Assembly: GCA_045542075.1 (NCBI GenBank)
Contig: JAZQKI010000017.1
Span: forward strand, 2,738 to 66,737
Reading direction: 5' to 3'
Length of the DNA stretch: 64,000 bases
DNA from: Eubacteriales bacterium
GTDB taxonomy: Bacteria > Bacillota > Clostridia > Oscillospirales > CAG-272
Shown here: piece by piece, positions 3,314 to 52,665 of the stretch
How the letters are laid out: the number at the start of each line of letters is the position of its first letter
Position numbering within the stretch: the first letter of the stretch is position 1
Made by a program: the position numbers and the translations under genes
Notes under the pieces: model-generated
Told to the model about the DNA's origin: nothing
The model's database searches: none
Seen by the model: only the letters and a program-made list of their open reading frames with translations

Positions 3314-4918
3314 TCACATTTCTATCCTGTCGTAATTATGGTTTATTCTCAAAATCAGATTGACCACTCTGTTGAGCATGTAGATAAACGCGCCGATAAT
3401 TATCACAAGATACGGCAAAAGCTTATTTTCAACACCCGACATGAGCATTACTACCATTCCCATTACAAATCCTATGATCAATCCGACGATAAGGCACTTT
3501 GTCGTGCTCTTGCTGACTGTGGATGCCTCCTCGTCTCCCTGCGCGCTGATGGTCGGATTCTTGACGTCACAGCTGATACAGTACGCGATGTGGCCGACAG
3601 CCGCCATTGCTACCGCAACGCTTCCGAGAAGTATCTCCCACGCGGGATACAGGAACATGGATATTATCGCCGTGATAATTATCGCTCCGACGGTGAATAC
3701 TCCGTTGAACGAGAATTTTACAAGCATTTGTGTGAAAAAGTCAACGGGAATAGTCTTTGACGTGTGGAAATTGCCTCCGTCTCTCGACACCGCAGATGCG
3801 GACGAGATATTGGAAAGCATAGCAAGTATGGCAACCACCATAACGTGCGCTCCCGCTATCATTTTAGGTCCCGCCGAATTATTGGTAGCCACCGTCATAA
3901 GCAGTTTATCGTAGGAAAATACTATAAACGGCATAAGAATAGTGAAAAGGAAATACTCAAATATCTCCGCGCTTGAGCGGAATACACAGAAAAGCTCCTT
4001 TTGGAAGAGGCTGGCAAAGCGGCTTCTGCTCTTGAATTTTTTGACCTTGGGCTTTACCTTGACCGTGTTCTCTATGCTCGACATAGCGATCTTGAAGAAC
4101 AAGCGTCTTGTAAAGAGTATGGCAACAGCCGCAACGGCAACGCACAGTGCTATAAATATCGGGAAATAGTACCATTCACTGAAGCTGAGCATCGCGCGGC
4201 CAAGCGGATAATACAGCGGTATCTGTTTGCCCACCGACTGAATAAACGCATTGGTCTTAATTACCGTCTCATACTGCTTTTCAACTATGTTGAATTCGCC
4301 CGCAATATTTCCTATAAGGCTCAGGTAACCCCACAGACAAGTGCAGACCAATCCAAAAATAACAACTATGGACAAAAAGGTATGCTTTTTGAGAAACCTG
4401 ATCACCCACATTATGGGAAGACTCACAAATGCCGCGATCGCTATGGGAAATACGGGCAAAAGCAGAGTGAGTATAACCAGGGAGAGATAATAGGAAACAC
4501 CAAGTCTCGCAAAGCTTCCAAGCGTAATAAATATTGGAAGTGTGATCATTGCGTTTGCGGCGATCTCCTTGATATATATCAGAAGAAGCTTTGATATAAA
4601 GAGCTGATTCGGTGTAACGGGCAGGCAAATAAGCATTTCATTATCCTTGCAAAGATAAAGAGTGTTTATTACGTTTCCCACCGCAAACACCAACGACAGC
4701 AGCTGTGTCACAATAAGGATTATTCCCAAAAGCTCAGCGTTGATAGCAAAGCCAAGGTTAAACACCCTTGAAAGTCCAAAGCTCACCGCAAGAGTGCCAA
4801 GCCCGAGTATCAGGACCGCCTTCAGCACCGCAGGGATCATGGTCTTTGGAGACGCTGCCTTAAGAATATCCGTCTTGTTATCAATCTGCATCTTCAGGAG
4901 CGACAAAATATTCTTCAT
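3314..4918 (-). CDS. Polytopic permease of a putative ABC exporter (ABC-2 / ABC_export-like)
   Basis: 534-aa ORF with many hydrophobic segments. It is separated by only 3 nt from the upstream ABC ATPase gene on the same strand. Confidence 0.7.
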   Translation of the reverse strand: MKNILSLLKMQIDNKTDILKAASPKTMIPAVLKAVLILGLGTLAVSFGLSRVFNLGFAINAELLGIILIVTQLLSLVFAVGNVINTLYLCKDNEMLICLPVTPNQLFISKLLLIYIKEIAANAMITLPIFITLGSFARLGVSYYLSLVILTLLLPVFPIAIAAFVSLPIMWVIRFLKKHTFLSIVVIFGLVCTCLWGYLSLIGNIAGEFNIVEKQYETVIKTNAFIQSVGKQIPLYYPLGRAMLSFSEWYYFPIFIALCVAVAAVAILFTRRLFFKIAMSSIENTVKVKPKVKKFKSRSRFASLFQKELFCVFRSSAEIFEYFLFTILMPFIVFSYDKLLMTVATNNSAGPKMIAGAHVMVVAILAMLSNISSASAVSRDGGNFHTSKTIPVDFFTQMLVKFSFNGVFTVGAIIITAIISMFLYPAWEILLGSVAVAMAAVGHIAYCISCDVKNPTISAQGDEEASTVSKSTTKCLIVGLIIGFVMGMVVMLMSGVENKLLPYLVIIIGAFIYMLNRVVNLILRINHNYDRIEM

Positions 4919-30014: not shown

Positions 30015-31406
30015 ATGGATAATAAGTTGCAGAAGCGATACGGACTTTTCACCGCGATATGTATGGTGGTGGGAATAGTCATCGGCTCGGGCGTGTTCTT
30101 CAAGGCGCAGGACATACTCAATTACACAGGCGGAAATATGCTTCTCGGCATACTTGCGTGGGTTATAGGCGGCGTTATTATGATAATATGCGCCTTCAAC
30201 TTCGCAAACTTCGCCACAAGATACGTCAAGGTCAACGGTGTCGTTGACTACGCCGAGGCCATAGTCGGCCCGAGATACGCGTATATGACGGGCTGGTTTC
30301 TCTCCAGCATCTACTTCCCCGCAATGACGGCGGTGCTTGCGTGGGTGTCGGCAAGATACACGCTGATTCTGTTCAACCCCAACGCAGATATAACAAGCGG
30401 TCTTTGTATGGCGCTCGGCGGATTTTATCTCTGTCTTGCATATACCGTCAATGTCCTCTCCCCCAGGATTGCGGGAAAATTTCAGGTCAGCGCGACCGTA
30501 ATAAAGCTTATTCCCTTGGCGATAATCGTTGTGGTTGGAACGATAGCAGGTCTTGTAAACGGCAACACCGTCGAGGCGTTCTCGTCCTCGGCAAGCTCTA
30601 TGAGCGGCGGCTTTGACAGTGTCTTTGCTGGCATTGGCGCGGCGGCGTTCGCATACGAGGGCTGGATAATCGCAACGTCTATAAACTCCGAGCTCAAAGA
30701 GCCGAAAAAGAATCTCCCCCGCGCGCTCGTTATAGGCACGGCGGTGATAATGGTGATATATATTACCTATTTTATAGGACTTTCGGGCGGCGCGTCCGTT
30801 GACGTGCTTCAGACCCAGGGCTCGACTGCAGCGTTCAGAAATCTTTTTGGCGGCGTAGGCAGCACTATCCTGAACGTATTTATCGTTATCTCCTGCCTTG
30901 GAACGCTTAACGGACTTATGCTTGCGAACACCCGCTCGCTTTATTCCTTGTCCGTACGCGGAAATGGCCCATCTCCCAAGATGTTTGCGCAGGTAGACCC
31001 GCAGACCAATATGCCCGCAAATTCAAGTGCATTGACTCTGCTTTTCTGCGGCGCGTGGTTCTTCTATTTCTACGGAGCAAACCTCACAGCCCCCATCTTT
31101 GGCGTGTTCAGCTTTGACTCGTCCGAGCTGCCGATAATCACGGTCTACGCGCTTTATATCCCGATATTTATTATGTTTATCAAAAAAGAGGGCAAGCACA
31201 ATATCTTCAAAAATATCGTGATGCCAATTCTTGCGGTAATCTGCTCGCTGTTTATGATTTTCGTGGCAATATACGCCCACGGTATAGTAAAATACAGGGC
31301 GGCGGCCGCCGCGGGAGAATTCGCCTTCCCCGTGCTGTTCTACCTTATAGTTTTCGCGGTCATAATGGGGGCAGGTGCGCTGTTTTATAAGTCGAAGAAA
31401 AAATAA
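30015..31406 (+). CDS. APC-superfamily amino acid permease
   Basis: 463 aa, 12 TM; contains GSGVFFK and FAYEGW motifs. Confidence 0.85.
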   Translation: MDNKLQKRYGLFTAICMVVGIVIGSGVFFKAQDILNYTGGNMLLGILAWVIGGVIMIICAFNFANFATRYVKVNGVVDYAEAIVGPRYAYMTGWFLSSIYFPAMTAVLAWVSARYTLILFNPNADITSGLCMALGGFYLCLAYTVNVLSPRIAGKFQVSATVIKLIPLAIIVVVGTIAGLVNGNTVEAFSSSASSMSGGFDSVFAGIGAAAFAYEGWIIATSINSELKEPKKNLPRALVIGTAVIMVIYITYFIGLSGGASVDVLQTQGSTAAFRNLFGGVGSTILNVFIVISCLGTLNGLMLANTRSLYSLSVRGNGPSPKMFAQVDPQTNMPANSSALTLLFCGAWFFYFYGANLTAPIFGVFSFDSSELPIITVYALYIPIFIMFIKKEGKHNIFKNIVMPILAVICSLFMIFVAIYAHGIVKYRAAAAAGEFAFPVLFYLIVFAVIMGAGALFYKSKKK

Positions 31407-31412
31407 TAGATG

Positions 31413-31496
31413 ACCTACCCGACAGGATTTGAACTTTCACATAATTTTGCGGGGCAAAATTATGTATAACGTTTCTTCTTACCGTTCGGGTGGTTA
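31413..31496. repeat. tRNA-Arg 3'-half-derived inverted-repeat element (copy E1)
   Basis: The left arm gacctacccgacaggatttgaac is a degenerate copy of 31539-31562 (the reverse complement of the tRNA-Arg 3' half). The centre is a 12-bp hairpin acataattttgc-ggg-gcaaaattatgt. The right arm taccgttcgggtgg resembles the tRNA-Arg acceptor 3' strand. Confidence 0.65.
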
Positions 31497-31500
31497 AACG

Positions 31501-31533
31501 CAAAGCAGAGGGGCAGGCGCCCCTCTGCTTTGT
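31501..31533. terminator. Bidirectional intrinsic terminator (permease on + / tRNA-Arg on -)
   Basis: aaagcagagggg-caggcg-cccctctgcttt. Confidence 0.75.
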
Positions 31534-31536
31534 GTT

Positions 31537-31613
31537 TGGCCTACCCGAACGGATTCGAACCGTTGACCTTCAGAGTCGGAGTCTGACGCGCTATCCAGCT
31601 GTGCCACGGGTAG
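31537..31613 (-). tRNA. tRNA-Arg (anticodon CCG)
   Basis: Manual cloverleaf: acceptor CTACCCG/CGGGTAG; anticodon stem TCAGA/TCTGA with loop CTCCGAC; T-arm AACGG-TTCGAAT-CCGTT; encoded CCA. Confidence 0.9.
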
Positions 31614-31658
31614 ATGTTTCTGTATAAATTCCTTTAATCCGGAAATAATAACAGTATG

Positions 31659-31687
31659 ATTATAGCACAAAACTTTTAACAATTCAA
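31659..31687 (-). promoter_or_regulatory. Promoter of tRNA-Arg (TTGAAT-17-TATAAT)
   Basis: The reverse complement reads TTGAATtgttaaaagttttgtgcTATAAT. Confidence 0.6.
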
Positions 31688-31734
31688 CGGCTTTTACAGA
31701 TTTAGAAAATTTTTTATTTTTTTCAAAAAAGTTA

Positions 31735-31763
31735 TTGACAAACCCAAAATCTTCTGCTATAAT
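31735..31763 (+). promoter_or_regulatory. Consensus sigma-70 promoter of tRNA-Gln(CTG) (TTGACA-17-TATAAT)
   Basis: TTGACAaacccaaaatcttctgcTATAAT, 18 nt upstream of the tRNA 5' end. Confidence 0.75.
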
Positions 31764-31780
31764 GATGTGGTCATAAACAT

Positions 31781-31856
31781 TGGGGCATCGCCAAGCCGTA
31801 AGGCATCAGACTCTGACTCTGACATTTCCGGGGTTCGAATCCCTGTGCCCCAGCCA
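31781..31856 (+). tRNA. tRNA-Gln (anticodon CTG)
   Basis: U1:A72 acceptor TGGGGCA/TGCCCCA; D-arm GCC-AAGCCGTAA-GGC; anticodon stem TCAGA/TCTGA with loop CTCTGAC; T-arm CGGGG-TTCGAAT-CCCTG (one G-U pair); 6-nt variable loop; GCCA tail. Confidence 0.85.
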
Positions 31857-31891
31857 AAAATTCGACAAGTTTCAACTTGTCGAATTTTTTT
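31857..31891 (+). terminator. Intrinsic terminator after tRNA-Gln(CTG)
   Basis: aaattcgacaagt-ttca-acttgtcgaattt followed by TTTTT. Confidence 0.8.
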
Positions 31892-31893
31892 AT

Positions 31894-32082
31894 CCAAGCC
31901 GCAGGCTTGGCATATCATCGCCGCACGAAGTGCTGCGTATATCATCAAGGGCGGCAAGCCGCCCTTGTATCTCATCACGCGCCAGCGTGCATTTTCCTGC
32001 GGCTTAATGATATACAACACTTCGTGTTGGTGATATACAAGGCTTACGCCTTGATGATATCCACGCCTTCGGCGTGATTTGG
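31894..32082 (+). ncRNA. Candidate structured RNA ('hairpin ladder'): seven unrelated hairpins joined by three nested complementary linker pairs
   Basis: See the first finding. There is no credible ORF. Linkers ATATCATC x3 (31911-31976) are complementary to GATGATAT-type linkers x3 (32006-32062) in nested order. The strand of any transcript is not established. Confidence 0.4.
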
Positions 32083-32167
32083 AGCGAGTGTCGCCCTCAA
32101 TTTCCCGCAAACGCCTTGCAATCTCCCCGATTTTATGCTATACTAACATCAGAAAGGCGGTGTTGAA

Positions 32168-32404
32168 ATGAAAAAGGCAAAAACCATTATAATCATTTGC
32201 ATATTGATAGTCGTTTTGCTTTGCTTAGTTCCAATTCCTCTTAAATTAAAGGACGGTGGAACTATATATTTACGCCCTATCATACCAGCATACGAAATAT
32301 ACATTTTTAATGCGGAGTATTTCGACGATCAAACTATGAAAGGGTTGGCAATCAACCTTTTTGGAATAGAAATATACGAGAACACCTATTATGTTGATGG
32401 ATAA
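32168..32404 (+). CDS. Small membrane-anchored or secreted protein (78 aa), hypothetical
   Basis: RBS AGAAAGG upstream. N-terminus MKKAKTIIIICILIVVLLCLV, then LKDGGTIYLRP.. Possible own promoter TTGCAA-17-TATACT at 32117-32145. Confidence 0.65.
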   Translation: MKKAKTIIIICILIVVLLCLVPIPLKLKDGGTIYLRPIIPAYEIYIFNAEYFDDQTMKGLAINLFGIEIYENTYYVDG

Positions 32405-32451
32405 TTTAGACGGCATCTATTAAGGTCAGAAGAGACAAAAAACGACAATAT

Positions 32452-32472
32452 TCGACAGAAGGCTGTCGTTTT
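32452..32472 (+). terminator. Intrinsic terminator after the 78-aa ORF
   Basis: cgacag-aagg-ctgtcg followed by TTTTT. Confidence 0.6.
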
Positions 32473-32667
32473 TACTTTTTCACTCTTCACTTTTCACTTT
32501 TCACTAAAACCTCTTGTCGTTTTTTGGCAAGTAATAAGTAATAGTGAATAGTGAAGAAGTGCTGATGTAGCTTTTCTCCCGATGGTCGAAAAGCATTATA
32601 TTTTACTAGGGTTCGAAATCTTATTAAGAAACGCAAAAATATCTTTTTCGTAGTCTTTATGCAAAAC

Positions 32668-32696
32668 GAAGGACACCATCAGGTGTCCTTTTTTCG
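32668..32696 (+). terminator. Orphan intrinsic terminator (no annotated gene immediately upstream)
   Basis: gaaggacacc-atca-ggtgtcctt followed by TTTT. Confidence 0.55.
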
Positions 32697-32785
32697 TTTT
32701 GGCTGGGGCACAGGGCAATTTGAAACACGACACATAAACCGCTTGCGATTTATGTAAGGGTTCGAACCCGTTCGGGCAGGCTATC
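32697..32785. repeat. Chimeric tRNA-3'-half inverted-repeat element (copy E2): reverse-complemented tRNA-Gln 3' end, a hairpin, then a tRNA-Arg-like 3' half
   Basis: ttttggctggggcacaggg (32697-32715) is the exact reverse complement of 31841-31859. The centre is acataaa-ccgcttgcga-tttatgt. The right arm gggttcgaacccgttcgggcaggc compares with tRNA-Arg GGTTCGAATCCGTTCGGGTAGGC. Confidence 0.75.
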
Positions 32786-32836
32786 CACATAAAAACAAAA
32801 AAGACATTCCCTTCTGCATTTAACTTGGTATTTATA

Positions 32837-32866
32837 TTGACAAATCAGGGTAAATTATGCTAAAAT
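32837..32866 (+). promoter_or_regulatory. glnA promoter (TTGACA, TG-extended TAAAAT)
   Basis: TTGACAaatcagggtaaattaTGcTAAAAT. Confidence 0.6.
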
Positions 32867-32918
32867 AGATCATAATCATTCCAAGCACAATAAACAAATT
32901 TGAAAGAGAGATACAGCT

Positions 32919-34343
32919 ATGAGCAAAACAATCAAGGATATAATCACACTGATTGAGAAAAATGACATTAAAATGGTTGACTTCAAGATGGTGGACATAA
33001 ACGGTCAGTACCGTCACGTCACTATCCCCGCGGAGAACTTCTCCGAGGACACAATGAAAAGCGGCATAGGCTTCGACGCGTCCAACTACGGCTACGCGGT
33101 AGTTGAAAAGAGTGACATGGTATTCATTCCCGACCCCGACACCGCGGTAATCGACCCATTCTGCTCTATCCCTACCCTCTCTATGACGGGTAACGCAATG
33201 ATAATCGACACACCCGAAAACCGTCCTCTTGCGCAGTACCCCAGAAATATCATCAAGGCGGCTGTTCAGTATATGAAGGACTCGGGCGTTGCCGACGAGA
33301 TGAAGATACTCCCCGAATTTGAATTTTACCTCTTTGACGATGTGACCTGGTCTGTTCAGGGAAACTATATCGGCGCGTCTGTTGACGCATCCCAGTCCTA
33401 CTGGAACAGCGACACAAACGGCAAGGGCGTTATAGTTCCCAAGCAGAAGAACTACCATATAGCAAAGCCCTTTGACACCTCCTACGAGTGCCGCAGCGAG
33501 ATGTGTCTGCTTATGAAGGAGATGGGAATTGACATCAACTACCATCACCCCGAGGTTGCCGCTTCAGGTCAGTACGAGATCGAGCCCCAGCTTGGCGAGG
33601 TCGTACACATGGCAGATGCTACTATGATGATCAAGTACATCATTCACAACACGGCACTCAAGTATGGCAAGAGCGCAACCTTTATGCCCAAGCCCATCTA
33701 TGGCGAGGCAGGCAGCGGAATGCACGTCCATATGCTTCTTTTCAAGGACGGTCAGCCCGTATTCTCGGACGACAACGGCTACGCGCACCTCTCCGAGACC
33801 GCTCACTACTTTATGGGCGGACTTCTCAAGCACATCTCCTCCCTTTGCGCTATCACTAACCCCTCCACAAACTCCTTCAAGAGACTTGTTCCCGGCTTTG
33901 AAGCTCCCGTGACGGTCGGTTACGCGACCTCCAACAGAAGCGCGGTGATCAGAATCCCCGCTTACGCAAAGAGCCCCGACAAGCGCCGCTTTGAGCTTAG
34001 AAATCCCGACGCTACCTGCAACCCCTATTTCTGCTATGCGGCAATCCTTATGGCAGGTCTTGACGGTGTTAAGAACAAGATAGATCCCCACGCAAACGGC
34101 TGGGGTCCCTACGACTTTAACCTTTTCCACCTCTCCGACGAGGAAAAGGCAAAGCTTCAGGGTCTTCCCACAAACCTCCCCGATGCGCTTGACGCACTTG
34201 AGGCAGATCACGACTACCTCACCGCAGGCGGTGTATTCCCCGAGGAGCTTCTCAAGAACTTTATCAAGGCAAAGAGAGCCGAGTGTTCGGAAATGTCAAA
34301 GATCCCCCACCCCGCAGAGTTTGATAAGTACTATAATCTTTGA
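32919..34343 (+). CDS. glnA: Glutamine synthetase, type I
   Basis: 474 aa with FMPKPIYGEAGSGMHVH, NPSTNSFKRLVPGFEAP and SNRSAVIRIP motifs. Confidence 0.92.
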   Translation: MSKTIKDIITLIEKNDIKMVDFKMVDINGQYRHVTIPAENFSEDTMKSGIGFDASNYGYAVVEKSDMVFIPDPDTAVIDPFCSIPTLSMTGNAMIIDTPENRPLAQYPRNIIKAAVQYMKDSGVADEMKILPEFEFYLFDDVTWSVQGNYIGASVDASQSYWNSDTNGKGVIVPKQKNYHIAKPFDTSYECRSEMCLLMKEMGIDINYHHPEVAASGQYEIEPQLGEVVHMADATMMIKYIIHNTALKYGKSATFMPKPIYGEAGSGMHVHMLLFKDGQPVFSDDNGYAHLSETAHYFMGGLLKHISSLCAITNPSTNSFKRLVPGFEAPVTVGYATSNRSAVIRIPAYAKSPDKRRFELRNPDATCNPYFCYAAILMAGLDGVKNKIDPHANGWGPYDFNLFHLSDEEKAKLQGLPTNLPDALDALEADHDYLTAGGVFPEELLKNFIKAKRAECSEMSKIPHPAEFDKYYNL

Positions 34344-34348
34344 TTTAT

Positions 34349-34939
34349 ATGTTTTATCTGATAATAATTTTCATATCCGTAATTTTAATATCGCTTGGAG
34401 TGTTTGCGGCAGACGGAGTGTTTACCCTGCTCGCCTTTGCGAAAATACTCGGCGCGACGGCGCTTGGCGCGTTTGCGGCTTTTGCCATTGACGGAATTTT
34501 CGCTTTTATCGCACGGCGATTGCCTGAAAAATGGTTTTCGCCCGAGGCAAAAATATTTACCGTCCCGGCAGGCGAGCGCAAGCTGTACCGAAAGCTGAAA
34601 ATAAACTCCTGGAAAAAGTATATCCCCGAGCTCGGCTGCTTTACGGGCTTTCATAAGGACAAATTGCGCGACCGCAACAGCAGTCAGTACGTAGGACGCT
34701 TTCTTCTGGAGTCCAATTACGGCGTGCTGGGGCACGTGCTTGGCGCAGTCCTCGGCTTTGCCGTAATGCTTCTCCCCTTTCTGCGCCCGCTGTCAATGGG
34801 ACTGCCTATCGCGATAGTAAACTTTGTTTTGAGTATGCTACCCACGATGATTCTGCGGTACAACACCCCCTCGCTCCGCAAGGTATATCAAATGAACCTC
34901 GCCCGCGAGCAAAAAGAGCGCGAGAGCGCGGAAAAATAA
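34349..34939 (+). CDS. Membrane protein resembling the glycosyl-4,4'-diaponeurosporenoate acyltransferase (CrtO-like) family; start uncertain
   Basis: ORF 34340..34939 (TTG); first ATG at 34349. Contains ERKLYRKLKINSWKKYIPELG between TM segments. The family call is from memory of that motif. No clear RBS. Confidence 0.5.
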   Translation: MFYLIIIFISVILISLGVFAADGVFTLLAFAKILGATALGAFAAFAIDGIFAFIARRLPEKWFSPEAKIFTVPAGERKLYRKLKINSWKKYIPELGCFTGFHKDKLRDRNSSQYVGRFLLESNYGVLGHVLGAVLGFAVMLLPFLRPLSMGLPIAIVNFVLSMLPTMILRYNTPSLRKVYQMNLAREQKERESAEK

Positions 34940-40457: not shown

Positions 40458-40492
40458 TAAAGGAGATGCACCTGCATCTCCTTTATTTTTTT
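40458..40492 (+). terminator. Intrinsic terminator after tRNA-Glu
   Basis: taaaggagatgca-cc-tgcatctccttta followed by TTTTTTT. Confidence 0.8.
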
Positions 40493-40493
40493 G

Positions 40494-40810
40494 CTCGCCC
40501 TTCCGGGCGCGAGAAGGCGGACAACTCAAATTTGCTCGCAAATTTGAGTTGGGGGTTCAGATTCCCGGCTTTAGGCTTTCGATTACTACTCTTTTCTCGT
40601 AGAATCGGAACGATAACTCGACGCAGTCGAGTTGAAAGTTCTGATTCATACGCAAAGCATAGCTTTGCTGCCCGCTTTTTGCTTCGCAAAATAGCGCCAA
40701 AATTTTTGAGGGTTCGATGCCCTCAAAAATTTTCTCAGAAGACATCCTTGACCACCTTGATGGTGGTCTGTTCTTTTTTTGCGGACTCCGTCCGAGGAAT
40801 CGGACAACAA
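40494..40810 (+). other. Non-coding run of ~10 unrelated, mostly perfect hairpins, ending in a second terminator-like hairpin
   Basis: Examples: caactcaaatttgc-tc-gcaaatttgagttg (40522-40551), aactcgac-gca-gtcgagtt (40615-40633), gcaaagc-ata-gctttgc (40652-40668), aaaatttttgaggg-ttcgatg-ccctcaaaaatttt (40698-40732, T-arm-like apex), and gaccacc-ttgat-ggtggtc followed by T-rich sequence (40750-40780). Confidence 0.5.
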
Positions 40811-52493: not shown

Positions 52494-52560
52494 GACTGGG
52501 CTAGCCGATTTGAACTGACTGCCAAGACGCTTGCGGCTTGGTGAGGGTTCAAATCTGGCC
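52494..52560. repeat. tRNA-Gln 3'-half-derived palindromic element (copy E3)
   Basis: The left arm ctgggctagccgatttgaactgac approximates the reverse complement of tRNA-Gln 52431-52455. The centre is ccaagacgc-tt-gcggcttgg. The right arm contains gggttcaaatctggcc (14-nt exact match to the tRNA T-arm). An extra ggttcaaatctggcc copy lies at 52602-52616. Confidence 0.75.
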
Positions 52561-52665
52561 TTTTCACCCTACGTGTGGTCATCATTGGCTAATTGTGTGA
52601 TGGTTCAAATCTGGCCGAAGTTTTGATTACTTTGAAGCGAGGCGCGTAAATCCGGATTTTCTTGC

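Follow-up and report, generated by a model that had tools for sequence, protein, structure and literature searches.

A hairpin ladder of about 190 nucleotides (nt) at 31890-32078 of the window (the whole 64,000-nt stretch of the Eubacteriales bacterium contig JAZQKI010000017.1 that was analysed) is one copy of a widespread and strongly conserved intergenic element of gut Clostridia. The ladder consists of three GYATATCATC words, a centre and three inverted GATGATATRC words, with a GC-rich hairpin between each word and the next. Its architecture, family, genomic context and covariation pattern, the shuffling of its hairpins and the replacement of the cassette beside it were all observed in the sequences compared. 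From these we infer a DNA level of action, a factor that binds the words and a role in recombination. In the reading that we favour, with a probability of roughly 0.4, the ladder would be a DNA-borne mosaic repeat folding as a single strand, in the manner of repetitive extragenic palindromes (REP) and bacterial interspersed mosaic elements (BIME). Coordinates are window positions unless a locus is named, and L with a number is the label of a locus in the comparison set.

Architecture of the ladder and its family

The hairpins, words and inverted words had been listed in an earlier note made from the letters of this DNA, and direct reading of the sequence found all of them in place. The parts of the ladder and of its upstream anchor were as follows.

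31735-31763, promoter of the tRNA-Gln gene, perfect and the tRNA's own (promoter scan)
31781..31856, + strand, tRNA-Gln(CTG), the upstream anchor (ARAGORN; Rfam tRNA, 53 bits)
31856..31889, + strand, intrinsic terminator made of an A-run, a 16-bp perfect stem and a T-run; inverted repeat 100% complementary
31892..31910, + strand, left boundary ATC and terminal hairpin T (= H1, 31894-31910), CCAAGCC-GCA-GGCTTGG
31910..31976, + strand, left half: words GCATATCATC (31910-19), GTATATCATC (31937-46) and GTATCTCATC (31967-76), with H2 (31920-31936, one C.T mismatch) and H3 (31947-31966) between them
31977..32005, + strand, centre: H4 (31977-31988), truncated word GCAT with T-rich spacer (GCATTTT, 31989-31995) and segment C (CCTGCGGCTT, 31996-32005)
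32006..32078, + strand, right half: inverted words AATGATATAC (32006-15), GGTGATATAC (32029-38) and GATGATATCC (32053-62), with H5 (32016-32028) and H6 (32039-32052) between them, then H7 (32063-32075) and right boundary GAT

Near-matches to GATGATATAC with at most one mismatch numbered 11 in the window, six of them inside the 190-nt ladder, compared to a chance expectation of 3.7 per 64 kb, and none of 100 shuffles reached 11. The 5' arm and loop of T (31896-31905) and segment C (31996-32005) were exactly complementary over 10 nt. A coding origin of the ladder was rejected, since unit lengths vary and the reading frame is not kept, and the 117-aa ORF gave no Pfam match.

The family was searched by two pattern scans with one genome per species, which gave hundreds of matches, mostly in Acutalibacteraceae, Oscillospiraceae, 'Clostridia/Eubacteriales bacterium' and Christensenellaceae metagenome-assembled genomes from ruminant and human guts. 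Clusters with four or more words numbered 111. The 92 dyad clusters, with words in both orientations, all had the GYATATCATC copies first and the GATGATATRC copies after; on this constant order, with the inverted state never seen, an inversion switch of T and C was rejected. After orienting and de-replication 70 elements were retained, nearly all from metagenome-assembled genomes of Acutalibacteraceae, Oscillospiraceae or other Clostridia, and 43 of them had exactly 3+3 words. Every one of the 70 began with TTTTT-ATCC-hairpin T and almost all ended with hairpin-GAT(T), and both the TTATCC with hairpin T and the layout of the centre were conserved among them. With 70 non-redundant copies sharing its architecture, the window ladder is no isolated case. 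The earlier note had called the hairpins unrelated, which did not hold: each was drawn from a pool of position-specific types common to many genomes. The H6 stem was AATTCC in 25 of 43 elements, and the types of the window's H2, H4, H5 and H7 recurred in other genomes. Up to four or five ladders were present in a single 8-kb locus, and L259, L233 and L244 are examples of multi-copy loci. A BLAST search of the ladder in phage and plasmid collections gave no match.

The consensus of the 70 elements provided the plan by which we define a hairpin-ladder superfamily, namely the T-run of a terminator, a terminal hairpin, N words with hairpins, a centre complementary to T, and N inverted words with hairpins. 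The window ladder follows this plan throughout, and ladders built on other words do so in L172, L259, L274 and L179.

Arrays with the words in one orientation were found in L112, L115, L123/L140/L150 and L214. Those of L115, L123 and L214 lay inside apparent transcription units, and one of them ended in a terminator. The variant in L123/L140/L150 (IMG/VR contigs) was phage-borne; it was composed of a long hairpin, five to six GATGATATGC units, GATTTGG and a terminator, and was placed after an open reading frame (ORF) in the manner of a 3' untranslated region (3'-UTR), for example at 8600-8790 of L123. L214 contained a compound array at 2288-2620, in which six GATGATATAC units ran directly into six ATTCCATA units, and a second ATTCCATA array at 4510-4640, 2 kb from the first. 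Two arrays with the words ATGATG and TCGATAT were present at 3650-4120 of L115, each behind the same leader of about 50 nt (ccgaccaacgtRtaaYYcgtaggggcgagcattgctcgtccgagatatg).

Covariation, word conservation and loop polarity

The folding z scores of the ladder compared to shuffles were -7.1 and -6.4 for the two strands. A clean nested ladder was the RNA minimum free energy (MFE) structure of 21 of the 43 family members; in the window, H2 and H5 happen to complement each other, and for this reason its own MFE structure departs from that ladder. Left hairpins and the reverse complement of right hairpins were no more alike within elements than between them, for which a true long palindrome was rejected; this makes the complementarity of H2 and H5 in the window an exception.

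Watson-Crick pairs made up 96% of the stem positions in the 260 spacers between words, of which about 170 were distinct. Covariation was computed on a 29-sequence alignment, where double-sided changes were found in 28 of 41 local hairpin stem pairs, bearing out the hairpins as real, covarying structures. The T:C helix was 99.0% paired, with compensatory changes in six of its ten pairs (62 cells), while slid controls were paired at 31-44%, and each of seven T classes had a matching C. The pairing of the apical segment with H1, suggested earlier as a possible pseudoknot or alternative fold, thus emerged as the interaction with the strongest support.

The three nested word helices were 93-95% complementary only because the words are conserved. 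Fifteen of their 29 pairs were invariant and any double change was confined to two pairs. At position 5 of the innermost helix A-T occurred 21 times, C.T 17 times, A.G four times and C-G once, and at position 2 of the other two helices C.A and U.G outnumbered C-G. Because these rare, position-specific variants break the pairing and one-orientation arrays exist, the words appear to be conserved as sequence and not as helices. What stood of the linkers described in the earlier note was their conservation in nested inverted order; selection for their pairing, and with it the evolutionary maintenance of nested linker helices, was not supported. The full nested ladder fold is possible, not demonstrably selected. 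As only 5 nt lie between T and the first word, T:C and the fully stacked ladder would on geometric grounds be mutually exclusive, and they would either be alternatives or T:C would form with the words unpaired.

The loops revealed a polarity of the units. Loops of the G..A type (cGAAg, cGCAg, cGTCAg, cGTTAg and others) were present in 69 of 134 left-half spacers and T..C loops in two (cTTCg). The right half showed the complement, T..C loops in 89 of 126 spacers and G..A loops in none. These mirrored types indicated that each unit reads 5'-hairpin(G..A)-GTATATCATC-3' and that the right half is made of inverted units, so that no single transcript would carry the preferred loops in both halves. 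Most loops were C-closed GNA triloops or non-GNRA GNNA tetraloops. C-closed GNA and GNNA loops are the rule for very stable DNA mini-hairpins, for example d(GCGAAGC), and by this analogy the loop types suggest the stability rule of DNA mini-hairpins more than that of RNA tetraloops. On the + strand, left-half mismatches were G.T rather than A.C at a ratio of 13:3; for the right half this ratio was 4:6.

The word-to-word spacing varied from 9 to 35 nt, and gyrase or curvature phasing was rejected on this ground. An array of sites for RNA polymerase resembling the -10 element, proposed before as another reading, was not supported as stated, given this spacing and the absence from the word of the conserved final T of the -10. 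Intrinsic terminator arrays (GC hairpin with immediate U-tract) were considered as well, and only H4 with CATTTTCC passed a lax scan; the ladder units are not intrinsic terminators because the words, with four non-contiguous U in 10 nt, are not U-tracts.

Genomic context of the ladders

All 70 oriented copies started directly after the T-run of an intrinsic terminator. A tRNA gene on the same strand lay 51-65 nt upstream in 29 of them, with 16 different anticodons, so the tRNA neighbourhood of the window ladder reflects a general property of the family. The remaining elements followed the terminators of other genes, tRNA relics or locus edges; 41 of the 70 had no tRNA within 150 nt, and some lay between ordinary genes or inside operons. 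The promoter scan of the window found no promoter able to drive the ladder on either strand. At the far end, the final TTGAT(T) of the ladder served 20 of 70 elements as the -35 for the promoter that follows, 17 bp from a -10 that was often TG-extended; the window's next promoter lies 40 nt past the ladder end. In L244, L233, L259 and L172 the order terminator-ladder-promoter was repeated like punctuation.

Downstream genes were diverse, apart from ten ladders, behind different tRNAs, that drive genes of PF05635 ('23S rRNA IVS', Avd-like four-helix bundle) in L012, L029, L075, L198, L208, L213, L226, L228, L229 and L240. Homology between these loci stopped at the stop codon, and the PF05635 protein is a candidate ladder partner. 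Other ladders drive small membrane or lipoprotein genes with a common TTTTATGCTATAAT...AAGGCGGTG module, which is shared by the window's 78-aa gene.

A conserved sequence of about 50 nt, aatcctcggttttcaggcacatttcattcgtgtcattaagttcaaactaccc, occupied the usual position of the tRNA 3' end in L233 (2130-2180), at two sites of L259 and in L219 (at about 700). It stood directly ahead of an A-run and terminator, and of the ladder in L233 and L259. It had no Rfam match and could be the 3' terminus of a small RNA that lacks annotation.

Turnover of hairpins and adjacent cassettes

The locus L343 represents a near-identical strain, with a GlnA protein identical to the window's. Its DNA matched the window's at 98% identity across the spacer and glnA (window 32611-34400) and at 93% near the tRNAs. 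The terminator, T, the first word, H4, the spacer and C were shared by the two ladder loci, and H2, H3, H5, H6 and H7 were swapped for other types of the shared pool, the window's H6 being H7 in L343. Another gene, of 142 aa and with its promoter directly against the ladder, took the place in L343 of window 32039-32610, where the promoter, the 78-aa gene and the tail of that gene lie. The features to the right of the window ladder were as follows.

32116..32404, + strand, adjacent cassette: promoter TTGCAA-17-TATACT (TG-extended), AAGGCGGTG ribosome-binding site and 78-aa ORF
32168-32404, + strand, the 78-aa membrane-like ORF itself (ORF list)
32610..32655, + strand, module X: a pseudo tRNA 3' end (GGTTCGAAATC...) followed by AAAAATATCTTTTT, at the right edge of the strain-variable block
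32700-32715, relic of the tRNA-Gln 3' end, a reverse-complement copy (read directly)
32758-32781, tRNA-Arg-like 3' half (read directly)

The homology with L343 restarted at window 32611, in module X. This module directly abutted the ladder in L015, L106 and L182, and it was closer to other X copies than to the local tRNA. The 78-aa ORF had no Pfam match and was not on record in an exact protein look-up. When orthologues were searched via the permease, synteny was mostly lost and L274, L263 and L304 were informative: the orthologous tRNA-Gln site held a Gut-1-like ladder with the word ATGAAATC in L274 and no ladder in L263 and L304. The two ladder copies of L259 have exchanged their T and C types. 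These hairpin swaps, the cassette replacement and the differences between sites show the ladder to be accessory and modular and to lie at a recombination-active cassette junction. Judged from the same comparisons, the ladder appears to recombine at unit boundaries, and to do so unusually fast.

Relationship to the orphan motif Gut-1

Rfam searches over the ladder region, at permissive and gathering thresholds, returned only the two tRNAs and a sub-threshold match to Gut-1 (RF01706). The right half (window 32005-32085) scored 16.9 bits (E = 3) with the Gut-1 model, compared to a gathering score of 50, and at the gathering threshold Gut-1 had no match anywhere in the window. ROOL, GOLLD and raiA, which the earlier note had wanted included, were absent from the cmscan results at E<=10 over 31400-32600.

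Gut-1 resembles the ladder in several respects. Its variable, covarying GC hairpins are split by a short conserved AT-rich word (GUGAAAU), and it occurs in gut Clostridia. In L172 and L259 its words face inverted copies in a dyad that begins right behind a terminator or tRNA, and the terminal hairpin of the dyad is complementary to a segment in its centre. L172 had two facing Gut-1 matches, four GTGAAAT followed by four ATTTCAC, with the terminal hairpin beside the terminator and the complementary central segment; in L259 a Gut-1 ladder after a tRNA terminator was followed by a ladder of the window's type. The two differ in the word, 7-nt GUGAAAU in Gut-1 and 10-nt GAUGAUAUAC in the ladder, and the Rfam model describes one arm only, with three hairpins. 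The window thus has the design of hairpin and linker, with GAUGAUAUAC / GUAUAUCAUC as the linker instead of GUGAAAU. By this design the window ladder is a sister of Gut-1 and not a member of RF01706. The first remark that the element matched no named RNA class has to be amended, since Gut-1 shares its hairpin-word design and gives the sub-threshold match.

A generic scan for hairpin arrays recovered the further words ATGAAATC (L274), ATGTAAT (L179), ATTCCATA (L214), TCGATAT (L115, L246) and CATCAT (L259), and the ATGTAAT ladder of L179 had the same TTATCC-T hairpin and GATTT ends as the window family. These ladders, Gut-1 included, constitute a superfamily with at least six different linker words. 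No function was given for Gut-1 by Weinberg et al. 2010 (PMC2864571). A full-text literature search with the exact words and RF01706 gave nothing relevant beyond that paper, and the literature on REP in Clostridia, with the paper of Fremin & Bhatt, added nothing.

Gut-1, an orphan motif since 2010, is accordingly one arm of a larger dyad element. The members of the superfamily have a precise site, with a terminator on one side and the following promoter on the other, and are found behind tRNA genes with strong enrichment. They carry a covarying long-range pairing and are hot spots at which closely related strains differ by modular recombination and exchanged cassettes. An unexplained alignment thereby becomes testable with regard to the strand that folds, the binder of the words, and transcription insulation versus turnover of gene cassettes, in carriers that are abundant and mostly uncultured gut bacteria.

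Weighing of a proposed DNA-borne mosaic repeat and its alternatives

A reading at the DNA level is in general at least as likely as one at the RNA level. It was favoured by the conservation of words without covariation, the mirrored polarity of the units, the DNA-type loops, the absence of a promoter, the rapid modular turnover and the coexistence of parallel word families. In a DNA-borne mosaic repeat, the words would be sequence-specific recognition words for a putative family-specific factor, and would not be maintained as helices. The hairpins and T:C would have to form in a single strand, either single-stranded DNA during replication or recombination, or read-through RNA. The ladder would persist in a harmless niche behind terminators, recombination at the repeated words would shuffle hairpins between copies, and the ladder would mark a junction for the exchange of small promoter-gene cassettes beside tRNA genes.

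REP, BIME and REP doublets forming hairpins (REPIN) of Proteobacteria are likewise extragenic and situated at the 3' ends of transcription units, a position that the ladders share. Like the ladders, they have units in both orientations and in variable number, form dyads that fold as single strands and are shuffled as mosaics, and they occur in multiple copies per genome. The ladder differs from them in host phylum and in the long-range T:C pairing, which has no REP counterpart. No REP-associated tyrosine transposase (RAYT) or other Y1 transposase was found nearby in the 66 ladder loci by tblastn with an IS200 TnpA query; RAYTs act in trans.

Several points weigh against a REP-like mosaic repeat. 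The linker word is conserved and the palindrome varies in the ladder (about 170 distinct palindromes among the 260 spacers), whereas the palindrome is conserved in REP and BIME. Copy number was counted per locus. No strain-level pair of empty and filled sites with a clean insertion boundary was found, nor any target-site duplication, and tblastn of the 66 ladder loci, with limited sensitivity, gave no IS200 TnpA and one XerD. The covariation of hairpins together with the left-half G.T bias on the sense strand (13:3) would suit an RNA just as well, and one-orientation arrays lie within apparent transcription units (L115, L123 and L214). Finally, Weinberg et al. 2010 (PMC2864571), who discovered Gut-1, rated it as certainly an RNA.

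The last three points speak for a structured, Gut-1-like RNA, a serious rival that we hold to be somewhat less likely than the DNA-borne repeat. Transcripts from terminator read-through or of 3'-UTRs would fold into the hairpins and T:C, with word helices possibly forming stacked four-way junctions. The RNA could act in cis and shield the promoter downstream, either as a second barrier or insulator or as a signal for processing or decay; alternatively, it could be a stand-alone noncoding RNA. The strong covariation of hairpins and T:C, the folding z of about -7, the nested ladder as MFE structure in 21 of 43 members, the excess of G.U over A.C in the left half, the constant order terminator-ladder-promoter and the array that ends in a terminator are all in line with this. 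However, no promoter serves the window ladder, which directly follows a strong terminator, the word helices do not covary, and the right-half loops are the complement of the preferred G..A loops. In addition, the loops are mostly GNA or non-GNRA GNNA and not the usual RNA tetraloops, the words are not U-tracts and the units not intrinsic terminators, and T:C would by geometry be incompatible with a full coaxial ladder across a 5-nt link.

With a low probability, the ladders including Gut-1 may instead represent a new class of single-strand-folding recombination or 'punctuation' sites in Clostridia. Factors specific to the words would bind a branched fold built of perfect four-way junctions, which T:C would lock or switch, and through this fold they would trade hairpin modules and promoter-gene cassettes at sites that follow terminators and tRNA genes. 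If true, this would amount to an integron-like cassette system with an unrelated site and enzyme. A naturally occurring RNA 'origami' ladder that includes a regulatory switch would be equally new. Similar to integron attC sites, the ladder keeps its structure while the sequence varies, folds as a single strand and lies at junctions of small exchangeable cassettes. It differs in that R''/L''-L'/R' boxes and the GTTRRRY core are absent, an integron integrase was not found, the ladder-side cassettes have their own promoters, and a multi-hairpin array stands in place of a single imperfect hairpin.

Two further readings each explain some of the context and fail their defining tests. It is improbable that the ladder is the relic or the working arm region of tRNA-targeting integrative elements, with the words as arm-type integrase or excisionase sites. 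Integrated DNA would then have supplied the tRNA 3' end, terminator and ladder, with cargo cassettes in the interval that runs from the ladder to the displaced 3' copy of the tRNA. This would explain why the first word keeps a constant 51-65 nt from the end of the tRNA for all 16 anticodons, and it would account for the pseudo tRNA 3' end of module X right after the ladder or after the cassette, the tandem tRNA-terminator-ladder-relic-terminator-ladder stacking in L259 and the ladders at the edge of the prophage-like contig L172. Three inverted and three direct 10-bp sites also resemble the arm-site arrays that lambda-type attP carries. However, a tyrosine recombinase was found in only one of 66 ladder loci, the 41 ladders distant from tRNAs do not fit, module X is nearer to other X copies than to the local tRNA, and the tRNA-Gln copy to the right of the window ladder (32700-32715) is inverted and not direct. 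An attP or attL arm would have an integrase gene beside it and a direct repeat of the tRNA 3' end on its far side, which this single recombinase-like gene, the inverted tRNA-Gln copy and the merely tRNA-like module X do not provide, and arm sites are not known to be separated by covarying hairpins.

Least likely of all is a double-stranded operator or nucleoid-protein array, in which a protein on the six 10-bp words would control or insulate the promoter at the right end. It would agree with words conserved as sequence and not as pairs, with the final TTGAT as -35 in 20 of 70 elements at a 17-bp spacer, and with the same PF05635 gene behind ten of the 70. But the spacing of 9-35 bp allows no helical phasing, spacers that are 96% Watson-Crick palindromes with strand-polar loops are needless for a duplex-binding protein, the T:C covariation would have no explanation, a single genome can contain two or more word families, and the window's promoter lies 40 nt beyond the ladder.

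A CRISPR (clustered regularly interspaced short palindromic repeats) array was rejected. Short identical repeats regularly split by variable segments that differ between close strains are a common trait, but the ladder repeats are 10 nt long and in two orientations, their 'spacers' are perfect palindromes from a shared pool, and no cas genes or leader were seen. CRISPR arrays have direct repeats of 23-47 bp, non-palindromic spacers and cas genes.

Other tRNA-adjacent and repeat regions

Relative to the window, L343 has a 1.4-kb insert between the permease and tRNA-Arg (100-1640 of L343). The insert contains two small genes, each with the same promoter and ribosome-binding site module (TATAAT...AAGGCGGTG), and repeated 3' fragments of tRNA-Arg border it on both sides. 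It is a cassette insertion at a tRNA without a ladder.

Right after the terminator of the 78-aa gene, at 32463-32560, CTTTTCA repeats face AGTGAA-rich repeats in an AT-rich imperfect inverted repeat, which gave weak, spurious Rfam matches to leader and miRNA families. Past tRNA-Glu(CTC), at 40490-40790, several hairpins and T-arm-like fragments (gggttcagattcccggc, gagggttcgatgccctc) form a scar region without a ladder. At 52500-52620, past tRNA-Gln(TTG) and its terminator, two partial direct copies of the T-arm and 3' region of this tRNA (gagggttcaaatctggcc, gatggttcaaatctggcc) look like relics of successive integrations, and a ccaagacgcttgcggcttgg hairpin in the same region resembles the ladder hairpin T.

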